64,000 nucleotides of DNA from an uncultured Candidatus Saccharibacteria bacterium (GTDB taxonomy: Bacteria; Patescibacteriota; Minisyncoccia; UBA6257): contig CAYZJA010000001.1 in assembly GCA_964479005.1 (NCBI GenBank), positions 192,001-256,000 on the forward strand, read 5' to 3'. Positions 2,889-53,592 of the stretch are shown piece after piece. The stretch's first letter is position 1, and every line of letters starts with the position of its first letter. The notes below the pieces were generated by a model. The model made no database searches. It was not told the DNA's origin and worked only from the letters and a program-made list of their open reading frames with translations. The position numbers were made by a program, and so were the translations under genes.

Positions 2889-3506
2889 ATGTTGGATGAT
2901 AAATGTAAAAAATGTAGGGCAGTTGGGGAGAAACTGTTTTTAAAAGGAGAAAGATGCTTTACTCCCAAATGCGCCTTAATAAGAAGGGGATTTAGGGTTT
3001 TAGGAAAAAGGAGAAGAAGAAAAACGTTAACTTCTTATGGCAAACAGTTATTAGAAAAACAAAAGGTAAAGTTAGCTTATGGAATGAGGGAAAAACAATT
3101 TAGAAGATATTTTAAAATGGCGTTAAAAAAGAAAATTTCTACTCCAGAAGCTTTTGCTCAATTAATAGAAAATCGTTTTGATAATACAGTGTTTCGTTTA
3201 GGATTTACTATTTCCAGAACGATGGCTAGACATTTAGTAAGCCATGGCCATTTTTTCTTAAACGGACGAAAACACAATATTTCTTCTACAATTGTGAAAA
3301 AAGACGATGTTATTTCTATCAGGCCACAGAGTAGCAGCAAAGCGCCTTTTAAAGATATTAAAGAAAGATTAAAAAAATATAGTCCTCCAAAGCATCTTAA
3401 ATTAGATATGAATAAAATGGAAGGAAAAGTTATGGCAGATCCAGATTTAGAAGAATTACAATTGCCTTTTGATTTCACTTCAATTGTAGAATTTTATAGC
3501 AGATAG
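2889..3506 (+). CDS. rpsD: 30S ribosomal protein S4 (zinc-ribbon type)
   Basis: N-terminal CKKC...CFTPKC zinc ribbon; S4 domain NGRKHNISSTIVKKDDVISI. Confidence 0.9.
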   Translation: MLDDKCKKCRAVGEKLFLKGERCFTPKCALIRRGFRVLGKRRRRKTLTSYGKQLLEKQKVKLAYGMREKQFRRYFKMALKKKISTPEAFAQLIENRFDNTVFRLGFTISRTMARHLVSHGHFFLNGRKHNISSTIVKKDDVISIRPQSSSKAPFKDIKERLKKYSPPKHLKLDMNKMEGKVMADPDLEELQLPFDFTSIVEFYSR

Positions 3507-4931: not shown

Positions 4932-5294
4932 ATGGAAAAAGAGAACAAAAATGTTGTTACAATAGATGCCAAAGACAAATCTTTAGGAAGAATGGCGTCC
5001 AGGATTGCTGTTTTGCTTCAAGACAAACATAAGGCTCAATATGCCCCAAATAAAGTTGGTGATACAGTTGTTATAATAGAAAATCTTAGCAAGATAAAAC
5101 CGTTTAAGGAAACAAAATTAAGAACAAAAACTTATTATAAGCATACTGGTTACATAGGCCACTTAAAAGAGACAAAGTTATCTGATATGTGGGAAAAAGA
5201 TCCAGTAAAAGTCCTTAAAATAGCTGTTAGAGGTATGTTGCCTAAAAATAAACTCAGAGATAAAAGACTAAAAAGATTAGAAATAAACTTGTAA
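4932..5294 (+). CDS. rplM: 50S ribosomal protein L13
   Basis: 120 aa; LGRMASRIAVLL...VVIIENLSKI...GMLPKNKL matches L13. Confidence 0.85.
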   Translation: MEKENKNVVTIDAKDKSLGRMASRIAVLLQDKHKAQYAPNKVGDTVVIIENLSKIKPFKETKLRTKTYYKHTGYIGHLKETKLSDMWEKDPVKVLKIAVRGMLPKNKLRDKRLKRLEINL

Positions 5295-6317: not shown

Positions 6318-6428
6318 CAATTGAATCATACAATTTAATTAGTTTGCCGAGAAGGTGACGCTAACCGAAGAGGGGCGTCTAGACTATCTCTAAGTTTATT
6401 AGGGGTCGTCTGGACACCCCTTTTTTCA
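6318..6428 (+). repeat. about 110-nt GC-rich structured 3' element, copy 1 of 2 (nested hairpins GGGGCGTC...GACACCCC plus T-run)
   Basis: Near-identical copy at 6662-6772; ends in CCCCTTTTTT (terminator-like). Confidence 0.6.
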
Positions 6429-6653
6429 ATGAATAACAAATTTATTATAAACAAAAGAAAATATCAGGAACTTTCTAAACTCTTTGATAATCCTACTAAT
6501 TTTAAGGAAGCTTGTATAAAACTTCTGTTAGAAATACCAGATAAAAAATTAGATTTTTACAAAGGGAACTTGACTTTTTCAAAAAACGGTGGCATGATTC
6601 TAATGAAAATAGAAGAATTATGTGGGTCAAAACACTTTAATTTTAAAGATTGA
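6429..6653 (+). CDS. small hypothetical protein, paralogue 2 (74 aa)
   Basis: MNNKFIINKRKYQELSKLFDNPTNFKEACIKLLLEIPDKKLDFYKGNLTFSKNGG...; ATG lies 2 nt after the T-run of the preceding hairpin. Confidence 0.5.
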   Translation: MNNKFIINKRKYQELSKLFDNPTNFKEACIKLLLEIPDKKLDFYKGNLTFSKNGGMILMKIEELCGSKHFNFKD

Positions 6654-39359: not shown

Positions 39360-40481
39360 CTATCTATTTGCCATCCGTAATGTTTCTATTAGTCTCATCA
39401 TAAATCTTAAATTATGAATACTTGCTAAACGCAAATAAAGAGACTCTTTAACTGAATATAAGTGATGAAGGTAGGCTCTGGAAAAATTTTGACAAGTATA
39501 ACAATCACAGTTTTTATCAATAGGATTGTTATCATTCTCAAAGCGGTTGTTAGATATTCTTAAACATCCTTTTTCAAATTCTGACTCAAAACTATAGAGA
39601 GAACCATGCCGAGCTGTTCTTGTTGGTGCAACACAATCAAACATATCAACTCCCCTTTTTACAACTTCGATTATATCATAAGGTGAAGCGCCTAATCCCA
39701 TAGTATAGCGAGGTTTATTTTCTGGTAAAAAATCCTGCAAATAATCTAAAATCTCTAATGTTTTTGGCATATTATAACCAATTGTTTCTCCACCTAATGC
39801 GATTCCATCAAAAGGAAGACTGGTAATAAACTTGGTTGATTCTTTTCTTAAATCTTCAAAAATTCCTCCTTGAATAATTCCGAAAATCAAAGGCGGTTTT
39901 TGTCCTAAGCTTATACATTTTTTACTAAGTTCTTGATGTTTTTTTAATGACCTTTCTGCCCAGCGATGAGTTCTTTCCATTGATTTTTTCGCGTATTCTT
40001 TGTTATCAGAATCAGGACTGCATTCATCAAAAGCCATAATAATATCACAACCTAATTTATGTTGAATTTCTATTGATTTTTCAGGTGTAATTAGATGTTT
40101 TGACCCGTCAATTGGGGATGAAAATTCTACACCATTTTCACTGATTTTAGCTAACTTCTGCCCTTCTTTTGCTCTATTTTTAGCAAAGCTCCATACTTGA
40201 AACCCTCCAGAATCGCTCAGAATAGGCCCAGACCAGCCCATAAATCGATGAATGCCTCCTTGAGCATTAATTAGATCTTCCCCTGGCTGTAAGTGTAAAT
40301 GAAGCGTATTAACCAAGAGTATCTCTATACCAATTTTACTTAAATCATCAGGCCCAACTGCTTTAACAGTTGCTTGAGTTCCAGGCGGCATAAAAATTGG
40401 TGTTTTTACAATATCATGATTTGTTGATATTTCGCCCAAACGAGCTCTATCAACCTTAGATTTTTTAATAATTTTAAACAT
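39360..40481 (-). CDS. tgt: queuine tRNA-ribosyltransferase
   Basis: FMPPGTQATVK, DSGGFQV, zinc site CDCYTCQ...H. Confidence 0.85.
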   Translation of the reverse strand: MFKIIKKSKVDRARLGEISTNHDIVKTPIFMPPGTQATVKAVGPDDLSKIGIEILLVNTLHLHLQPGEDLINAQGGIHRFMGWSGPILSDSGGFQVWSFAKNRAKEGQKLAKISENGVEFSSPIDGSKHLITPEKSIEIQHKLGCDIIMAFDECSPDSDNKEYAKKSMERTHRWAERSLKKHQELSKKCISLGQKPPLIFGIIQGGIFEDLRKESTKFITSLPFDGIALGGETIGYNMPKTLEILDYLQDFLPENKPRYTMGLGASPYDIIEVVKRGVDMFDCVAPTRTARHGSLYSFESEFEKGCLRISNNRFENDNNPIDKNCDCYTCQNFSRAYLHHLYSVKESLYLRLASIHNLRFMMRLIETLRMANR

Positions 40482-40483
40482 AA

Positions 40484-41569
40484 TTATACGATAAACATTG
40501 CGTCTCCAAACGAGAAGAATCTATATTTTTTTACAATAGCTTCTTGATAAACTTTTAAAATTAAATCTCTATCAGCAACCACGTTAAACGTGGTATCAGT
40601 CGCGTTAAACGCGACAAAAGCGGAAACCAACATTAATAAAGTGGACTTAGGAAGGTGAAAATTCGTAATCAAAGAGTCAACAAACTTAAATTTATATCCA
40701 GGATAAATAAATAAATTTGTTTGATCTCGTTTCGGTTTTAATTCTAAGCTTTCATCTACACAACTTTCTAAAACACGAGCTGCAGTAGTTCCAACAGCAA
40801 TAATCCTCTTGCCCTCTGATTTTGACTTATTAAGTATTTTAGCAGTATCTTTAGAAAGTTCAAAAAATTCAGAATGCATTTGATGTTTTGTAATGTCTTG
40901 CGATTTTACTGATAAAAAAGTTCCCAATCCTATATGTAAAGTAATAAATTGCATATCAATCCCCTTTTCTTCAATTTTTTTTAAAAGGTTTTTTGTAAAA
41001 TGAAACCCTGCAGTAGGAGCGGCAATTGAGCCTTCTTTTTCTGCATAAATTGTTTGATACTCTAAAAATGATCTTTCAGTAGGCTCGGTAATATAAGGCG
41101 GTAAGGGAAATTGCCCTAAAGATAAAGCCTCCTGTTTTAAATCCTCACCTTCCATATTAAAACATATGATTCTTTCATAATTTAAAACCTCTTTTATCTC
41201 CCCCTTTAATAATTTACTAAATTCAATAATTTGCCCTTGTTTTAATTGAGGTTTCCCAATAATTACCCATCGTTTAGGCCATGAGATAAAATCAAAAATT
41301 TCTTTATTCTCAGGCCGAATAAGAAGAATTTCCGCTTTTCCATGGCTTGGAATTTTCTTTCCATATAAACGTGCTGGTACTACTTTACTATTATTAAATA
41401 CTAAAACATCATTATCAGACAAATAATCTAATATCTCATAGAATTTTCTATGTTCTATTTTTTTACTTTTTCTATCTAATATTAAAAGACGCGAGTGATC
41501 TCGCGGCTCTATTGGTTCCTGAGCAATAAGCTCTTTTGGTAAATGATAATCAAAAAGCGAAATATCCAT
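40484..41569 (-). CDS. queA: S-adenosylmethionine:tRNA ribosyltransferase-isomerase
   Basis: MDISLFDYHLPKELIAQEPIEPRDHSRLLIL. Confidence 0.85.
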   Translation of the reverse strand: MDISLFDYHLPKELIAQEPIEPRDHSRLLILDRKSKKIEHRKFYEILDYLSDNDVLVFNNSKVVPARLYGKKIPSHGKAEILLIRPENKEIFDFISWPKRWVIIGKPQLKQGQIIEFSKLLKGEIKEVLNYERIICFNMEGEDLKQEALSLGQFPLPPYITEPTERSFLEYQTIYAEKEGSIAAPTAGFHFTKNLLKKIEEKGIDMQFITLHIGLGTFLSVKSQDITKHQMHSEFFELSKDTAKILNKSKSEGKRIIAVGTTAARVLESCVDESLELKPKRDQTNLFIYPGYKFKFVDSLITNFHLPKSTLLMLVSAFVAFNATDTTFNVVADRDLILKVYQEAIVKKYRFFSFGDAMFIV

Positions 41570-42636: not shown

Positions 42637-43560
42637 TCATTTTTGCAGTTTTCTCAACCATTTATCAGCATCCAAAAGAGCCATTGCGCCCAAACCAGCA
42701 GCAGTAATTGCTTGTTTATACTTAGTATCGCAAACATCTCCTGCGGCAAATATCCCATCAACAGAAGTTTTTGTATTCTCCTTTACTTTGATATAACTAT
42801 TATTATCTAAATCAAGCTGATTTTGGAAAATATCAGTTGATGGTTTATAACCAATTGATACAAATAATCCATCTAATTCTAAAAATCTTTTTTCTTTTGT
42901 ATTTACATCCTTTATATAAACTCCTTCTAAAGAATCTTTTCCTTTAATTTCTGAAATAACAGTATTCCAAATAAATTCTATTTTTGGATTATTAAAAACT
43001 TCCTCTTGCAATTTTTTAGACGCCCTTGATTCATTTCTACGATGAATAATAAAAAGTTTTTTTGCATATTTAGTTAAAACAATAGCATTTTCCATAGCGC
43101 TATCGCCTCCTCCTACAACACCTACGATTTTATCTTTAAAGAAAAAACCATCACATACAGCGCAAGCAGAAACACCATGGCTAATTAATTCTTGCTCATT
43201 TTTTAAACCAAGCCATTTAGTAGAAGCTCCAGTAGCTACAATTACAGCTTTTGCCAAATATTCTTCATTGTCTGTTTTTATAACAAAAGGCTTTTTTTGA
43301 AAATCTACAGAAACCACATTCTTTTCTATCATTTCTACACCAAATTTTTTAACTTGTTCAATTATTTTTTTAATAAGTTCTGGGCCTGTCATTTTTTCAG
43401 GAAAACCGGGAAAATCATCAATTTGTTCGCTAAGCATTAATTGCCCTCCCAAAGGTAAACCAGTGAATAATAATGTTTTGAGTTTTGCTCTGCCAGCGTA
43501 AATTCCTGCTGTTAAACCAGCTGGACCACTGCCAATAATGATAATATCTTTAATATCCAT
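42637..43560 (-). CDS. trxB: thioredoxin-disulfide reductase
   Basis: GSGPAGLTAGIYAGRA (FAD), CAVCDG redox centre, GGGDSA (NADPH). Confidence 0.85.
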   Translation of the reverse strand: MDIKDIIIIGSGPAGLTAGIYAGRAKLKTLLFTGLPLGGQLMLSEQIDDFPGFPEKMTGPELIKKIIEQVKKFGVEMIEKNVVSVDFQKKPFVIKTDNEEYLAKAVIVATGASTKWLGLKNEQELISHGVSACAVCDGFFFKDKIVGVVGGGDSAMENAIVLTKYAKKLFIIHRRNESRASKKLQEEVFNNPKIEFIWNTVISEIKGKDSLEGVYIKDVNTKEKRFLELDGLFVSIGYKPSTDIFQNQLDLDNNSYIKVKENTKTSVDGIFAAGDVCDTKYKQAITAAGLGAMALLDADKWLRKLQK

Positions 43561-43604
43561 AATTCTTTTATTTTAGCACTTTTAAGCTAAAAATAACAAC
43601 TTTT

Positions 43605-43633
43605 CGCTTCGCCACGTCAAACGTGGCTTCGCT
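43605..43633. repeat. palindromic 29-nt motif CGCTTCG-CCACGTCAAACGTGG-CTTCGCT (copy A)
   Basis: Perfect inverted repeat CCACGT-caa-ACGTGG flanked by direct GCTTCG; reverse-complement copy at 53478-53510. Confidence 0.6.
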
Positions 43634-43674
43634 CAAGAACGTTGTTTTCTCATTTTATTCGAAAATAAAAGAAA

Positions 43675-43702
43675 AACAGGTATCAAAGACACCTGTTTTT
43701 CT
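43675..43702. terminator. orphan intrinsic terminator hairpin between the divergent trxB and murD
   Basis: AACAGGT-atcaaagac-ACCTGTT plus TTTTT; neither flanking gene is transcribed toward it. Confidence 0.5.
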
Positions 43703-43741
43703 GGTGATCCCCTCCTGCAAGCAGGAAGGGAAGCCCCACCG

Positions 43742-43769
43742 TTGACGACCTTGCGATCGTCAGCATAAT
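43742..43769 (+). promoter_or_regulatory. candidate murD promoter TTGACG-16-CATAAT
   Basis: TTGACG 43742-47, CATAAT 43764-69. Confidence 0.45.
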
Positions 43770-43850
43770 TATAACAAATAAAAAAGCAAAAATCAACCCC
43801 AGCATGAAAATTGGCAATAGAAATTTTTGAATGTTAAAATAACTATTATG

Positions 43851-48350: not shown

Positions 48351-48435
48351 ATTCTAATTCTACCCCTTTAACAGGCTCAGGGCAAACAAAAAATCGCCTC
48401 TTTCACCATTTTAAAAGTATTCCAATAAATTTAAA

Positions 48436-48462
48436 ACCCCGGTTTTAAACCAACCGGGGCTC
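48436..48462 (-). terminator. intrinsic terminator CCCCGGTT...AACCGGGG for the 48504-49109 gene
   Basis: 8-bp GC stem followed on the minus strand by TTTTAAATTTATT. Confidence 0.55.
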
Positions 48463-48503
48463 TTAAAATACTTTGATGAATATACAATTAGTTTGTATAT
48501 TCT

Positions 48504-49109
48504 TTAGGGAAGATAATATGGCATAGAAGCAAAGCCGAAGAAGAAAACAAGACCAATGATAATACATGCTAACACACCTACGCAAACAATAATATCTTCT
48601 TTATTGTCGTAATGAAAGTTTATTTCTCCTAAACCTTCACCCCAGGACCAACCTTCAATCCAGTACCTCCTATTTCCTTCTCTGTATTCATACAAATCAC
48701 TGTAAATAATCACTCCAAGTCCGCTAACAACAGCCGAGTATATTTTACTCAAGGAATAGTATCTATCTGTTTTAAGAAACTTGGATTCCTTTTTTCTAAG
48801 TTCAAAAAACGTATAAATAGTTCCTTCTGGTACCAATTCTAAAAATTGCTCCAAGCTGTCACACAGCACTGCATAATTTCCAAGAATACCAGCTTTTATT
48901 TCTTCTGAAAATTCCCCTTCTACACTATCAAACATATTCTCTATATTCACTTCTACCGCTCCATGAATTTTTTCTGACTTGAACATAATCTCTACATCTT
49001 TACTAAAGTGAATCAGAAAAACCACAGACCAAATTACAAAAATGCCTACTACAACTAAACTAATTATCATCCAGCATTTCAATCCTTTATTCTTCTTTCG
49101 ATTACTCAT
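48504..49109 (-). CDS. hypothetical membrane protein (201 aa; N- and C-terminal TM)
   Basis: ORF; SD AAGGGAGGAAG; preceded by the R1 leader module. Confidence 0.4.
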   Translation of the reverse strand: MSNRKKNKGLKCWMIISLVVVGIFVIWSVVFLIHFSKDVEIMFKSEKIHGAVEVNIENMFDSVEGEFSEEIKAGILGNYAVLCDSLEQFLELVPEGTIYTFFELRKKESKFLKTDRYYSLSKIYSAVVSGLGVIIYSDLYEYREGNRRYWIEGWSWGEGLGEINFHYDNKEDIIVCVGVLACIIIGLVFFFGFASMPYYLP

Positions 49110-49128
49110 TTTTCTTCCTCCCTTTTAA

Positions 49129-49340
49129 ATTTTTTTATTTTATATTATTAAACTATTTACTATATAACTAACTACTAATAATTTATAATAATCAGTTATA
49201 TAGTAAATAGTAAAAATATTGTTTTTCAAAGAACTAAAAATATCCTATTACAGGATATCATAAGTATAACATATTTTATATTGTTAGTCAATATATAATT
49301 TAGCTGGGGCTATGGAACGATGTTGGAACTTATTTCATAG
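49129..49340 (-). promoter_or_regulatory. R1 promoter-leader module: GTTCCA direct repeats, TTGACT-17-TATACT, operator palindrome ATATCCTATTACAGGATAT, perfect 18-bp inverted repeat in the leader
   Basis: About 80% identical to R2 (50262-50460); -35 at 49286-91, -10 at 49263-68, palindrome 49240-58, stem arms 49152-69 and 49194-211. Confidence 0.6.
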
Positions 49341-49345
49341 AAAAA

Positions 49346-49702
49346 TCACAATTTTAATTCTGAAATTATTGTTCTTCCAGATTCTTCTTTCTTTTTAAAA
49401 ATTAAGAATTTGGGACTAATCTTCAAATTTGGATCATTTGATGTCTCGGGTTTTAAAAACTCTGCTATTCCCTGAATTTGGAGTGTACCTTCTCTTGTTT
49501 GATCATCTATGACTAAAGAAACTGTTTGATTATTTAACAGATTTTTAAACTTTAATGAATCAGGGTTAGTTGAAATATATATATTAAAATCATCATCAAC
49601 TATATAATTAACTGTTGCTGCCCAGGGTCTATCTTCATAAGAAGTAGCCAACACACAATGCTTATGTTCTTTTAACCATTTTTTAATAAGTTCCTTTTCC
49701 AT
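49346..49702 (-). CDS. pyridoxamine 5'-phosphate oxidase-like FMN-binding split-barrel protein
   Basis: KWLKEHKHCVLATSYEDRPWAATVNY typical of the PNPOx-like / general stress protein 26 family. Confidence 0.6.
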   Translation of the reverse strand: MEKELIKKWLKEHKHCVLATSYEDRPWAATVNYIVDDDFNIYISTNPDSLKFKNLLNNQTVSLVIDDQTREGTLQIQGIAEFLKPETSNDPNLKISPKFLIFKKKEESGRTIISELKL

Positions 49703-49790
49703 TGTTCATATTTTACCAAAAAATCGCCTCTTTGACTATTTTAATTTAGCTACCCCTATGAAACGATATTGGAACCCATTTCATTAAATA

Positions 49791-49830
49791 AAATGGAGGC
49801 TGAAGAAATCTTATTTCTTTGCCTCCATTT
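49791..49830 (-). terminator. intrinsic terminator AAATGGAGGC...GCCTCCATTT
   Basis: 10-bp stem; on the minus strand followed by TTTATTTAAT. Confidence 0.55.
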
Positions 49831-49837
49831 AAAAAAA

Positions 49838-50242
49838 TTATTCCTCTATTACTTTTTTTATCATTTGTGCTTCAATCTCATTAGCTATAGCCGATACTAT
49901 AAGTGCAAACGTGAGCATTCCGTTTGCAATAGTACCAGTAACATCATGAAAGAACAAATAATTTCCCATGGCCACCCAGAAAAGAGCTACTGTAAACATT
50001 TCTTTGATAAAAATACCCCTCCTTATTCCACCCTTTGTGATGCTCCCGTAGATAATCCGAAGCATTGTTTTACTTGGGTTTCCCTTATGAGTAGGTACTT
50101 CTAGAGCTAAAAATATAGCTACTGCAGGACAAAAGAGAATTCCTGGATTGCGTGTTGCCCAAATCAACAATATCAGAAATGAAACTATTGAAAGCACAAC
50201 TCCTATTGCGTGAAGTACAGATATATATACTGGTCTATTCAT
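49838..50242 (-). CDS. hypothetical membrane protein (about 134 aa, 4 TM)
   Basis: The ATG (M4 of the ORF-track protein) sits 8 nt after SD AGGAGG; preceded by the R2 module. Confidence 0.4.
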   Translation of the reverse strand: MNRPVYISVLHAIGVVLSIVSFLILLIWATRNPGILFCPAVAIFLALEVPTHKGNPSKTMLRIIYGSITKGGIRRGIFIKEMFTVALFWVAMGNYLFFHDVTGTIANGMLTFALIVSAIANEIEAQMIKKVIEE

Positions 50243-50261
50243 TTTTTCCACCTCCTTTCAA

Positions 50262-50460
50262 ATTTTAATTAATATTAAACTACCTGTTATATAACTGACC
50301 ACTAATAATGTAATGACCAGTTATATAACAAGTAGTAAGTATATTGTTTTTCAAACAACTAAAAATATCCTATTACAGGATATTATAAATATAACATATT
50401 CTATGTTAGGAGTCAATACATAGCTGGTCCTATGGAACGATGTTGGAACCTATTTGGCTC
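50262..50460 (-). promoter_or_regulatory. R2 promoter-leader module (paralogue of R1): GTTCCA repeats, TTGACT-17-TATATT, the same operator palindrome, 18-bp stem with compensatory changes
   Basis: -35 at 50411-16, -10 at 50388-93, palindrome 50365-83, stem arms 50280-97 and 50318-35. Confidence 0.6.
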
Positions 50461-50543
50461 TCCTTCATTGAATACGCTTATAACTTTAGATTGATGAACT
50501 ATAGTAAAAGATTTATTTCTATTTGATAATTTAAATTTGAAAA

Positions 50544-50990
50544 TTATGGAAATATCCAATTGAGCAATTTGGTTTCTATCTTTTCCCGTAGCACAATGTT
50601 TTGAATTTTACCTATCAGCGAATTTTGAGAAAAAATGCATCCGTCAATCCTGGTTGCCTGACAAATAATTGCTCTCATCGGCTGTCTATAAATCTCCTTT
50701 GGATGTAAAAATTGATAATCGGATAATTTTATTATTTCATTTACTTTATCCTCGTAAAGCTTAGTTTTAGATAAGGGAATAGCAAATGCCATACTCTGAG
50801 ACCAAAAAGATTGATCCAGCCAAAGTATAATCGGTCTTGGTTTACCAATAACATTGCTCACTGTGTTATTTTGTCCGCAATAAGGACAAGAATAATTTGT
50901 AATAGAAAAATCCCTGCAACAGCGCGGATTAGAACATTTAATTGTTTCCGGAAATCTAGATATATAAATAATATCCCATTTGTGAAACAT
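50544..50990 (-). CDS. MazF/PemK-like toxin-fold protein with a 4-Cys zinc-ribbon insertion
   Basis: WDIIYISRFPE...[CSNPRCC...CPYC]...GKPRPIILW...AFAIPLSKT follows the MazF/PemK consensus, with a C-x4-CC...C-x2-C insert after strand 1. Confidence 0.5.
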   Translation of the reverse strand: MFHKWDIIYISRFPETIKCSNPRCCRDFSITNYSCPYCGQNNTVSNVIGKPRPIILWLDQSFWSQSMAFAIPLSKTKLYEDKVNEIIKLSDYQFLHPKEIYRQPMRAIICQATRIDGCIFSQNSLIGKIQNIVLREKIETKLLNWIFP

Positions 50991-50993
50991 ATT

Positions 50994-51521
50994 TTAAAAT
51001 GGCAAATCTTCTTTTTCTTCCGGCTCTGATTCCGTTTTTTTTGCAACATCCAAAATATCGTCCCTTTTTGATTCTTGAACAATTGGAAGTTTATAAACTA
51101 TATCAAGCAAATTTTGAAGACTAAGATTACCAAATGAATCAACGACTTCATCAATTATTAATAATTTTTCAGGGCCGAGCGATTTTAATAACTGTTCTTT
51201 TATAGAAACTTCCTTTTTTAAATAATATCTGGTATAGGATTTAGTTTCCTTTCTAGTTAAAGGAAACTTCTTTATTTCAATATACCCAATGTTAGAAAGA
51301 TGATTAGTATAATTGTCTAATTCTACTGTAAACGGGCCGTGTAAATATTTTTTGTATTCCATCACGGTAATTTTTTCTTTTAATCTCCGCATTGCTAAAA
51401 TATCACTCAAAAAAAGTAATTTTTGAAGATGGGTTTTACCGAGAATACCATCTAATCTTGAAATCAAATAAAAAACCACTGCGAGAGTATCTTTATCTAA
51501 CTTAGCTTCGCTTTTGACCAT
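50994..51521 (-). CDS. Panacea-domain (DUF4065, SocA-like) putative antitoxin
   Basis: HLQKLLFLSDILAMRRLKEKITVMEYKKYLHGPFTVEL matches the Panacea core; 4 nt upstream of the MazF-like gene. Confidence 0.55.
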   Translation of the reverse strand: MVKSEAKLDKDTLAVVFYLISRLDGILGKTHLQKLLFLSDILAMRRLKEKITVMEYKKYLHGPFTVELDNYTNHLSNIGYIEIKKFPLTRKETKSYTRYYLKKEVSIKEQLLKSLGPEKLLIIDEVVDSFGNLSLQNLLDIVYKLPIVQESKRDDILDVAKKTESEPEEKEDLPF

Positions 51522-51603
51522 AATATTGAACTTTCTTTATTTTAAGTATAGCCTAAAAAGAAAGTCAAGTAAACAAACCAGTAATAACTTTTCTTTCATA
51601 GAT

Positions 51604-51915
51604 TTATTTATTTTGCTCTTTCTTCGCTGAATTAAAAATATTAGCTTCTATCTTTTTCATTATTCTTCCGCCAATAGATATATAAACGATAAAGGCTAAA
51701 ACAATTGTTGTGATTCCAGCTATCCAAGAAAAAATAAAAAACGTAGTAATAATTAATATAATCCCTAAGATAATAAGGGAATTATTCCAAATCAAAACAT
51801 TTGGTTTTTTAGATAGAATCTTCTTGGACCAAGTATTATTAACAGTAATATAGGCAATAATCAATATTGATCCTAACAATAGTAAATAAAAGATATTTCC
51901 AAAAAATTCAAACAT
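51604..51915 (-). CDS. hypothetical membrane protein (103 aa, 3 TM)
   Basis: ORF only. Confidence 0.35.
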   Translation of the reverse strand: MFEFFGNIFYLLLLGSILIIAYITVNNTWSKKILSKKPNVLIWNNSLIILGIILIITTFFIFSWIAGITTIVLAFIVYISIGGRIMKKIEANIFNSAKKEQNK

Positions 51916-52023
51916 AGATTTATTTTAACTTCTTTCGCCACGCCTAGTACCCATTGTTTATTCTACCAAAAAATCGCCTCTTTGGCGATTTCGATGTATC
52001 TCGGTCCCTCGATAAAAAAACTA

Positions 52024-52729: not shown

Positions 52730-52821
<92 letters not shown>

Positions 52822-53395: not shown

Positions 53396-53592
53396 AGAAG
53401 CAAGTATTTGCTCCTGAACGACATTAGTGGAAGCAGAGATACAAACAAATGAAACGAATGATAGGGAAAGCCGAAACTGGAGCGGAGCCACGTTTGACGT
53501 GGCGGAGCGGAATTTCGGAAGGCTTCCAGAGCGAGTGAATATTGTTTGTCTCTGCTGGAATGCAGGAGAGAAGGGGGAAATACTTGCTTCTA
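53396..53592. ncRNA. candidate roughly 197-nt rod-like structured RNA (6S-like architecture), strand undetermined
   Basis: Perfect 13-bp closing helix GAAGCAAGTATTT/AAATACTTGCTTC (53397-409 and 53578-590); further long-range pairs CTCCTG/CAGGAG and GCAGAGATACAAACAAAT/ATATTGTTTGTCTCTGC; apical hairpin carries the CCACGTTTGACGTGG motif; unusually GC-rich; 323-nt intergenic. Confidence 0.45.
53478..53510. repeat. palindromic motif copy B (reverse complement CCGCTCCG-CCACGTCAAACGTGG-CTCCGCTCC)
   Basis: Same core and flank pattern as 43605-43633, inverted orientation, at the apex of the rod-like structure. Confidence 0.6.

Follow-up and report, generated by a model that had tools for sequence, protein, structure and literature searches.

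A palindromic 15-mer, CCACGTCAAACGTGG, recurs in two GC-rich islands of a 64,000-nt stretch from an uncultured Candidatus Saccharibacteria bacterium (assembly GCA_964479005.1, contig CAYZJA010000001.1, positions 192,001 to 256,000 of the forward strand; hereafter the window). Exact matches lie at 43612-43626 on the plus strand, between a thioredoxin-reductase-like gene (trxB) and murD (copy A), and at 53488-53502 on the minus strand, downstream of htpX (copy B), and a one-mismatch variant, CCACGTTAAACGTGG, is found at 40579-40593 within queA. These gene names are backed by the Pfam annotation of syntenic relatives and by named database matches (Pyr_redox_2 for the thioredoxin-reductase-like gene, MurD-like, Queuosine_synth, and Peptidase_M48/HtpX), and a tRNA-Ser at 52732-52821 is the only RNA gene found in the window. 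An earlier inspection of the same stretch (the original prediction) had proposed that the motif is shared between two GC-rich islands, carries matching direct-repeat flanks, does not recur by chance, and represents either the operator of a dimeric regulator or a conserved hairpin module. The sharing, the flanks and the non-random recurrence are all borne out by our analysis. The two islands have a GC content of 42-48%, compared with 30.8% for the window; dinucleotide-preserving shuffles yield a mean of 0.01 matches to the 15-mer, with none of 100 shuffles reaching four; and the similarity between copies A and B extends over 36 nt at 89% (43602-43637 against 53477-53512).

At the centre of both copies is an invariant 13-nt palindrome, CACGTCAAACGTG, bounded by 7-nt direct repeats of the form GCYNCGC, such that the copy A module is GCTTCGC-CACGTCAAACGTG-GCTTCGC and the copy B module is GCTCCGC-CACGTCAAACGTG-GCTCCGC. 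On the opposite strand these repeats read GCGAAGC (copy A) and GCGGAGC (copy B), both of the GCGNAGC mini-hairpin type. In each copy a stem of 7 bp closes on a 3-nt loop (GCCACGU-CAA-ACGUGGC); a 3x3 internal loop and two G-C pairs separate this stem from an outer helix, the sequence of which differs between copies A and B. An archaeal bulge-helix-bulge intron motif could be excluded from the sequence alone, as the 3-nt loops lie directly opposite each other and are not offset by a 4-bp helix. The parts of the two modules are as follows.

43613..43625, plus strand: 13-nt palindrome CACGTCAAACGTG of copy A, a 5-bp stem with a CAA loop; the 17-mer GCCACGTCAAACGTGGC results when the adjacent G/C is included
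43606..43612, plus strand: left 7-nt direct repeat of copy A, GCTTCGC; GCGAAGC on the other strand, a DNA mini-hairpin sequence
43626..43632, plus strand: right 7-nt direct repeat of copy A, GCTTCGC
53489..53501, minus strand: 13-nt palindrome of copy B, CACGTCAAACGTG when read on the minus strand
53482..53488, minus strand: 3'-side direct repeat of copy B (7 nt), reading GCTCCGC, or GCGGAGC on the plus strand
53502..53508, minus strand: 5'-side direct repeat of copy B (7 nt), reading GCTCCGC

Copy A forms the tip of a larger hairpin element inserted upstream of trxB.

43597..43661, plus strand: 65-nt A-type hairpin element (CAACTTTTC...TTATTCG) with copy A at its tip
43590..43596, plus strand: left AAAATAA, a 7-nt direct repeat resembling a target-site duplication, present as a single copy at the empty site of relatives
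43662..43668, plus strand: right AAAATAA, 7-nt direct repeat
42637..43560, minus strand: thioredoxin-reductase-like gene, the 5' region of which received the A-type element (context only)

The element is positioned between a leader terminator and the trxB start codon. When the murD-trxB spacer was aligned with that of five syntenic relatives (loci L120, L121, L122, L124 and L145, whose QueA proteins are approximately 87-94% identical to that of the window), the spacer proved conserved but the window had 72 extra bases, made up of the 65-nt element and a second AAAATAA, the relatives carrying one. The same element also occurs at unrelated loci, where it is either filled with the 13-mer (L098) or unfilled (L140 and L135); unfilled elements have one GCTTCGC or GCTTTGC at the tip and are exactly 20 nt (13 + 7) shorter, and the homologous element of L135 is flanked by AAAATAA and AAATAA. 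There is no clear inverted repeat at the very ends of the A-type element. The possibility that outer stems are inverted duplications of the target was rejected for copy A, as the same outer stem is found at other loci in L098, L140 and L135.

Two observations concern the trxB leader itself. On the minus strand at 43570-43599, the element end and the duplicated TTATTTT form the -35-like TTGTTA of a promoter-like TTGTTA-18-TAAAAT before trxB, and since they supply this -35-like sequence, the insertion may alter trxB transcription. Further upstream of the gene (43670-43800, minus strand) lies a conserved unit with a promoter-like TTGATT-17-TGnTATAAT, a GC-rich two-hairpin RNA of approximately 65 nt in which L120 shows compensatory changes (CCUGC/GCAGG to CUUGC/GCAAG), and, from 43702 to 43670, an intrinsic terminator, which in relatives lies approximately 45 nt before the start codon. 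This unit has no Rfam match; it resembles an as yet undescribed leader of the attenuator or riboswitch type, or else a small RNA.

Copy B forms the apex of a much longer structure.

53397..53590, minus strand: 194-nt rod, a long imperfect hairpin with copy B as its apex, beginning at the htpX stop codon
53590..54474, minus strand: htpX (M48 peptidase) gene, directly followed by the rod (context only)

The location of copy B 3' of htpX and on the strand opposite to copy A is as originally described, with the correction that it lies inside a 194-nt structured repeat and not in a promoter region. The rod is closed by a 13-bp stem (GAAGCAAGTATTT/AAATACTTGCTTC) and has folding z-scores of -5.0 and -5.5. 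In L127 and L129 there is no rod, and the htpX stop codon leads straight to the promoter-like region of the next gene; in the window, L125/L126 and L128, a GC-rich element of 200-300 nt follows htpX, with its ends kept (AAGCAAGTATTT...AAATACTTGCTT) and its interiors unrelated between the window, L125/L126 and L128. No clear target duplication for the rod was seen in this comparison downstream of htpX. A metagenome scan with the rod 3' end found two to three rod copies on single contigs of relatives, together with truncated derivatives, and the rod belongs to a dispersed repeat family. Every rod copy directly follows an apparent stop codon on the strand of that gene, the gene end being confirmed only for htpX, and T-runs follow several rods (including those of L125 and L135). 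The apex is variable on a shared backbone: L142 carries the backbone of the window's rod at another locus with CCACGTTAAACGTGG at its apex, and L135/L138 have the same backbone with GCTTCGC flanks but a longer palindrome at the apex.

In L135/L138 a further palindrome appears to be nested in the loop of this apex (CTACGT-[TAGAAGTTTACTTCTA]-ACATAG), as does one in a hairpin tip of the form GCCACGT-[AATAAATTGCTACAGCAATTTA]-AACGTTG in the tRNA-Ser(cga) trailer of L100 (approximately 1719-1754), which suggests that hairpins may grow from the tip. Genomes of the relatives hold further repeat families: the L145 spacers at 5066-5210, 6353-6471 and 3350-3452 contain long AT-rich palindromic repeats of the ACAACGAATTTC...GAATTCGTTG types and a fragment of the L125-type rod interior (GGGCTCGGAATATAGTTTTCGAAAACGTCC...).

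The third copy is part of a protein-coding gene.

40577..40615, minus strand: 39-nt in-frame double-hairpin insert in queA, GTCGCGTttaACGCGAC-tgat-ACCACGTttaACGTGGT-t, encoding VAFNATDTTFNVV

The one-base variant had been placed correctly at 40579-40593, and our comparison adds that it is one half of this insert, which consists of two adjacent hairpins (40578-40594 and 40599-40615) and adds 13 residues, VAFNATDTTFNVV, between LVSAF and ADRDL. The insert is missing in the closest homologues (P0001 at 94% identity, others at 88% and lower; range 85-94%) and is found with 39 of 39 nucleotides identical in a 76%-identical homologue (P0028 from L123), the flanks of which are only 71-85% identical. 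In other homologues this QueA spot is occupied by different GC-rich hairpin inserts, with direct repeats of 9 nt (L145) and 12 nt (L147), that of L145 being an inverted copy of its own flank; L146 also has an in-frame hairpin insert with direct repeats. In tgt of L123 we found a related in-frame double-hairpin insert of 7 residues, GACTTAGG-TCGCGTTAGACGC-GACTTAGG, with an 8-nt repeat, and in other CPR genomes (Candidate Phyla Radiation, or Patescibacteria) units lie inside open reading frames (ORFs) at L005, L064, L091 and L092, the unit in a TMEM260-like glycosyltransferase of L005 being translated as ...ATFDVA.... In-frame insertion into conserved ORFs is thus seen in QueA, in Tgt of L123, in the L005 glycosyltransferase and in others. 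An 11-residue segment in Tgt of L120 and L123, GEI(L/F)SK(N/D)GEVN, which is not present in the window (39360-40481) or in L124, is a separate Tgt indel and not obviously a hairpin.

Taken together, the window holds three insertion events with four hairpins, and by comparison with relatives all three window copies are insertion-type polymorphisms. The units are nested, are present or absent between relatives, have short direct-repeat flanks (3, 7, 7, 8, 9 and 12 nt) and sit preferentially at hairpin tips. The original prediction had itself named a transposon-like distribution with target-site duplications as the pattern that would speak against a regulatory motif, and this is the pattern that we find, with 7-nt repeats flanking both the 13-mer and the 65-nt element and direct repeats of 8-12 nt flanking related in-frame inserts. 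We conclude, with a probability of roughly 0.78, that the motif forms the core unit shared by a family of GC-rich palindromic insertions of very small size in this AT-rich Paceibacteria genome, and is not a protein operator.

The family extends well beyond the window. Loci picked from a genome collection by the exact 17-mer GCCACGTCAAACGTGGC number more than 119, of which 37 have CPR names and approximately 15 more are low-GC metagenome-assembled genomes (MAGs) with the same features; matches that share coding flanks in high-GC genomes are chance occurrences within conserved proteins. Viral contigs gave only 5 matches, two of them identical, and three, on contigs of 62-64% GC, are probably chance or coding matches. 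The 17-mer occurs in three classes: the direct-repeat module, perfect extensions into terminator-like palindromes, and double hairpins such as GCCACGTCAAACGTGGC-T-GGGACGTTTGACGTCCC. Among 97 distinct instances, the direct-repeat module accounts for 11 with at least 5 of 7 matching flank positions, 6 of which match at 7 of 7, compared with a 7/7 match in 0.5% of mispaired flank controls. When the 13-mer and one repeat were removed in silico, GC-YNC-GC came to lie at a predicted hairpin tip in 6-7 of the 11 cases. Besides the queried core, hairpins with a GTYWRAC tip number 39 in 421 kb of low-GC loci against 1.4 expected from shuffles, and 4 against 0.4 expected in high-GC loci; these sister hairpins are mostly exactly 17 nt long, with stems that vary freely and a tip that is kept.

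Many members of the family are associated with the 3' ends of stable RNAs. Five 17-mer copies begin exactly at the discriminator-CCA of a same-strand tRNA, further copies lie between tRNAs, behind tmRNA and in rRNA-operon spacers, some following tRNA-3'-like fragments, and at tmRNA the hairpin overlaps the 3' end on the transcribed strand. Terminator-like members are found at L069, L103 and L080, and composite forms (double hairpins and the 27-nt module) recur across distant CPR lineages. The double hairpin in the tRNA-Ser(cga) trailers of L030 and L037, which are possible orthologues, shows a compensatory change from GGGAAG/CTTCCC to GGCAAG/CTTGCC.

Several further observations were made at these loci. 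Fragments resembling tRNA 3' ends (e.g. AATCCTGTCCCCACC-GCCA) occur as duplicates, along with the double hairpin that follows them, in L030 (1008-1112 and 2020-2076), L037 (1723-1785) and L100 (600-642), away from any intact tRNA, which suggests that a segment of tRNA 3' end plus hairpins may itself have been copied. On a Vogelbacteria contig (L080, 2087-5591), four terminator-like hairpins with A/T-rich stems share the tip GGGG-TCAGA-CCCC, and the terminator loops of some CPR lineages may usually be of the GTYWRAC type. Three 17-mer copies lie within 110 nt in L020 (6206-6315), with repeated spacers and an adjoining run of N, and could represent a tandem array or an assembly artefact; a CRISPR or TIGR-like array, an idea raised by this locus and a literature match, was set aside, given that the window copies are single and L020 has an assembly gap. 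The low-GC MAGs at L005, L008, L028, L030, L100 and others, labelled ‘uncultured Gammaproteobacteria’, and L037, labelled ‘Nanoarchaeia’, have CPR-like hairpin units and similar tRNA clusters, and their taxonomic labels may be wrong.

As to how such units could spread, we propose a DNA-level copy-and-paste process that would favour hairpin tips in single-stranded form, of which the GCGNAGC mini-hairpin is an example. Either template switching, in the sense of templated insertion at short repeats during replication or repair, or a putative hairpin-specific enzyme could drive it; in a template-switch or snap-back sketch, a GCGAAGC end would prime on a CACGTTTGACGTG-GCGAAGC donor. Successive nesting would give rise to longer GC-rich rods, and some copies would probably have been co-opted as RNA 3'-end or terminator hairpins. 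For the copies at tRNA and tmRNA and in rods, a co-opted part in forming or protecting RNA 3' ends is plausible, but it cannot alone explain the distribution. A stronger version, to which we give perhaps one chance in four, is that the 13-17-nt hairpin, invariant across CPR, is an extremely small self-propagating DNA unit that uses hairpin-targeted templated insertion or an undiscovered CPR enzyme. Such a unit would copy itself with a 7-nt duplication into GCGNAGC tips and onto the CCA ends of tRNA and tmRNA, would build rods by nesting and would add peptides to essential proteins; if this is true, it would constitute a new class of mobile DNA, neither a miniature inverted-repeat transposable element (MITE) nor a repetitive extragenic palindromic (REP) element.

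A number of points weigh against the insertion-family reading. A scan of 29 ORFs (20 in the window and 9 neighbouring) revealed no transposase, HUH/Y1 enzyme or reverse transcriptase, so that the case for mobility is built entirely from comparative patterns, and the lengths of the flanking repeats (3-12 nt) fit poorly to one classical transposase. Slippage between the 7-nt repeats could delete a 13-mer, so that the change between unfilled and filled states may have run in either direction. Copy number is low, with three events in 64 kb and none in approximately 100 kb of the closest relatives except in L123. The invariance of the core is partly a selection effect, since the loci were found with the exact 17-mer. 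Finally, the exact tip across deep CPR lineages, the start at the discriminator-CCA and the compensatory double hairpin of L030 and L037 point to a selected RNA- or DNA-level function beyond a purely selfish model.

We considered how the units relate to known elements and structures. GCGNAGC is an extraordinarily stable single-strand DNA mini-hairpin that only GNA loops can form, known from single-stranded phage DNA as a signal for priming or promoter activity (PMC13037366). The repeats flanking the 13-mer match this motif exactly on one strand (GCGAAGC, GCGGAGC or GCGTAGC); a role for it as an insertion target is undescribed elsewhere and is one that we infer only here. Among the closest analogues are the GC clusters of yeast mitochondria (e.g. 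GC42) and the mitochondrial double-hairpin elements (DHEs) of the fungus Allomyces, for which no enzyme has been identified (PMC4478555). Like these, the CPR units are short GC-rich palindromes (approximately 20-60 nt) in an AT-rich genome, with short direct repeats, sporadic presence and absence between close relatives, and double-hairpin forms; in both, hairpin shape is selected for, and units merge or nest and apparently exchange at conserved flanks. They differ in that GC clusters and DHEs reside in fungal mitochondria, whereas the CPR unit resides in bacterial chromosomes (here that of a Paceibacteria-type host, according to named database matches), is smaller (13-17 nt), keeps its tip across a bacterial super-phylum, is tied to tRNA 3' CCA ends and GCGNAGC tips, and has flanking repeats of 7-12 nt as opposed to AG/ACT.

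Rickettsia palindromic elements (RPEs) are found in RNA genes and spacers as well as in conserved protein genes, where their insertion is in frame; they are approximately 100-150 bp long and form defined Rickettsia families (PMC10969869). The likeness to our inserts lies in palindromic repeats of a reduced, AT-rich genome that add a peptide and leave the ORF intact (here in QueA, Tgt and the L005 glycosyltransferase), whereas the inserts here are 18-60 nt long, of unrelated sequence and flanked by direct repeats, the distinction from the RPE families being drawn by size. The rod, in turn, resembles MITEs (Correia, ERIC, SPRITE) in having 13-bp terminal inverted repeats, multiple copies, truncated derivatives and a position 3' of genes, and is terminator-like, as is SPRITE (PMC10969869). 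Dispersed copies with presence/absence polymorphism are likewise found, and the 13-mer is entirely inverted repeat; on the other hand, no parent insertion sequence with matching ends is known so far, the 29 ORFs scanned having given no transposase match, and a 13-nt unit is far below MITE size. In the literature, the 13-mer was found in no paper text, none of the papers listed linked MITEs with CPR, and no description was found of such hairpin elements in CPR.

Alternative explanations differ considerably in how well they account for these data. That the motif is the operator of a dimeric transcription factor for a trxB/htpX stress regulon, possibly CtsR-related, we regard as very improbable. 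In its favour, the inverted repeat of the core is perfect, with 6-3-6 spacing, copy A is located upstream of trxB and supplies part of the promoter-like TTGTTA-18-TAAAAT, and a GTCAAA hexamer is present; however, the upstream regions of trxB are conserved in five relatives that lack the motif, the repeat holding copy B is located 3' of htpX and in close relatives is either missing or built with another interior, the third copy forms part of the translated queA sequence, and elsewhere the core abuts tRNA 3' ends, caps terminator-like stems and lies in ORFs. The site is therefore not kept relative to orthologous promoters, and a duplex operator would need neither outer complementary stems nor direct-repeat flanks. 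The CtsR operator is a tandem repeat of the heptad (A/G)GTCAAA, 3 nt apart. No tandem heptad is present at either site, and a window search for the CtsR pattern RGTCAAANANRGTCAAA with up to 2 mismatches gave 2 matches (14150 and 49498) against 1.27 expected, none at the motif sites. The trxB/htpX operator is thereby removed as a false lead. The other option originally raised, a conserved hairpin module, holds. A more serious contender, though still unlikely at somewhat under one chance in three, is a functional RNA hairpin whose G-U-YWR-A-C tip would be recognised by a conserved CPR protein or nuclease and would mark or protect RNA 3' ends, any spread being secondary, by duplication. It would account for the exact starts at the discriminator-CCA of five tRNAs and the sense-strand overlap with the tmRNA 3' end, for the clustering in tRNA and rRNA spacers, for a tip kept while stems vary, for the compensatory change in the L030/L037 double hairpin, for rods in sense orientation after stop codons and often before T-runs, and for the terminator-like members at L069, L103 and L080. 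It does not fit the absence of copies A and B from orthologous sites of close relatives, the antisense orientation of copy A (CAA orientation) to any nearby gene, or the translation of some copies in ORFs in either orientation, and RNA pairing leaves the direct-repeat flanks unexplained; GNA triloop mini-hairpins are, moreover, a feature of DNA and not RNA (PMC13037366). A scan for intrinsic terminators (a GC-rich hairpin plus T run) reported none at copy A or B. At the gathering score of Rfam 15, nothing overlaps the motif, the rod or the A-type element, with only tRNA, tmRNA and rRNA matched in the window and 20 loci; known RNA families (6S, signal recognition particle, RNase P, riboswitch) were rejected, the rod and the copy A region having no Rfam match even at E<=10.

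An enzyme acting in trans is the basis of another proposal, in which a REP/REPIN-type element is moved by a RAYT or an IS200/IS605-like Y1 (HUH) transposase that recognises a hairpin in single-stranded DNA. Like REP elements, bacterial interspersed mosaic elements (BIMEs) and REPINs, the units are imperfect palindromes of short length and extragenic position, often 3' of genes and possibly stabilising or terminating RNA; they occur alone or, as in BIMEs, in clusters within which the orientation alternates. Hairpin shape is kept while stems vary, and the association with the GCGNAGC mini-hairpin further suggests a single-stranded intermediate. In REP/RAYT systems a conserved 5' GTAG-like tetranucleotide adjoins the palindrome, REPs typically flank the RAYT gene, and to our knowledge Y1 transposition makes no flanking direct repeats. 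Here, by contrast, the flanks comprise GCYNCGC repeats, tRNA ends and variable stems with no conserved tetranucleotide of that type, direct repeats are present, units occur in coding regions and combine variable stems with a constant tip, and neither a RAYT nor a Y1_Tnp match was found in the 29 scanned ORFs, the analysis covering 64 kb of this genome. In place of hundreds of near-identical extragenic copies per genome there are three events in 64 kb, and sister stems differ. We accordingly consider a REP-type origin quite improbable. Somewhat better placed, at about one chance in five, is the idea that no dedicated element exists and that the inserts are by-products of general repair or replication, through snap-back or templated insertion at breaks, the 13-mer being simply the commonest template. 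The spread of flanking repeat lengths from 3 to 12 nt, the L145 insert that is an inverted copy of its own flank, and the many unrelated hairpin inserts at one QueA hot spot all agree with it, whereas the recurrence of the exact 17-mer across distant CPR lineages in composite forms (double hairpins, the 27-nt module) and of the same 39-nt insert at the same queA site in divergent genes does not.

CPR/Patescibacteria genomes are usually described as tiny, streamlined and repeat-poor. Hairpin insertions across the super-phylum would be an overlooked source of genome and protein variation, affecting spacers, leaders, RNA 3' ends, QueA and Tgt, and could confound the prediction of non-coding RNAs and genes, because GC-rich islands in AT-rich genomes resemble structured RNAs. 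How very short palindromes move is a question still open for mitochondrial GC clusters, RPEs and many REPs, and the combination of an invariant palindrome, the GCGNAGC mini-hairpin and the tRNA CCA link provides a testable handle on it.

Elsewhere in the window, the region at 48379-52001 contains families of direct repeats around small ORFs (112 nt at 86%, 50 nt in three copies and 43 nt in three copies), with 49186-49345 paired with 50311-50465 and a set at 48379, 49709 and 51959; a hairpin, AATCGCCtctttGGCGATT (51972-51990), lies inside one of these repeat units. Within the same region, on the minus strand at 50544-51521, an ORF with a SocA/Panacea antitoxin domain (50994-51521) adjoins an unannotated 148-residue ORF (50544-50990) inside the repeat-rich stretch, and the two ORFs may be a toxin-antitoxin pair.

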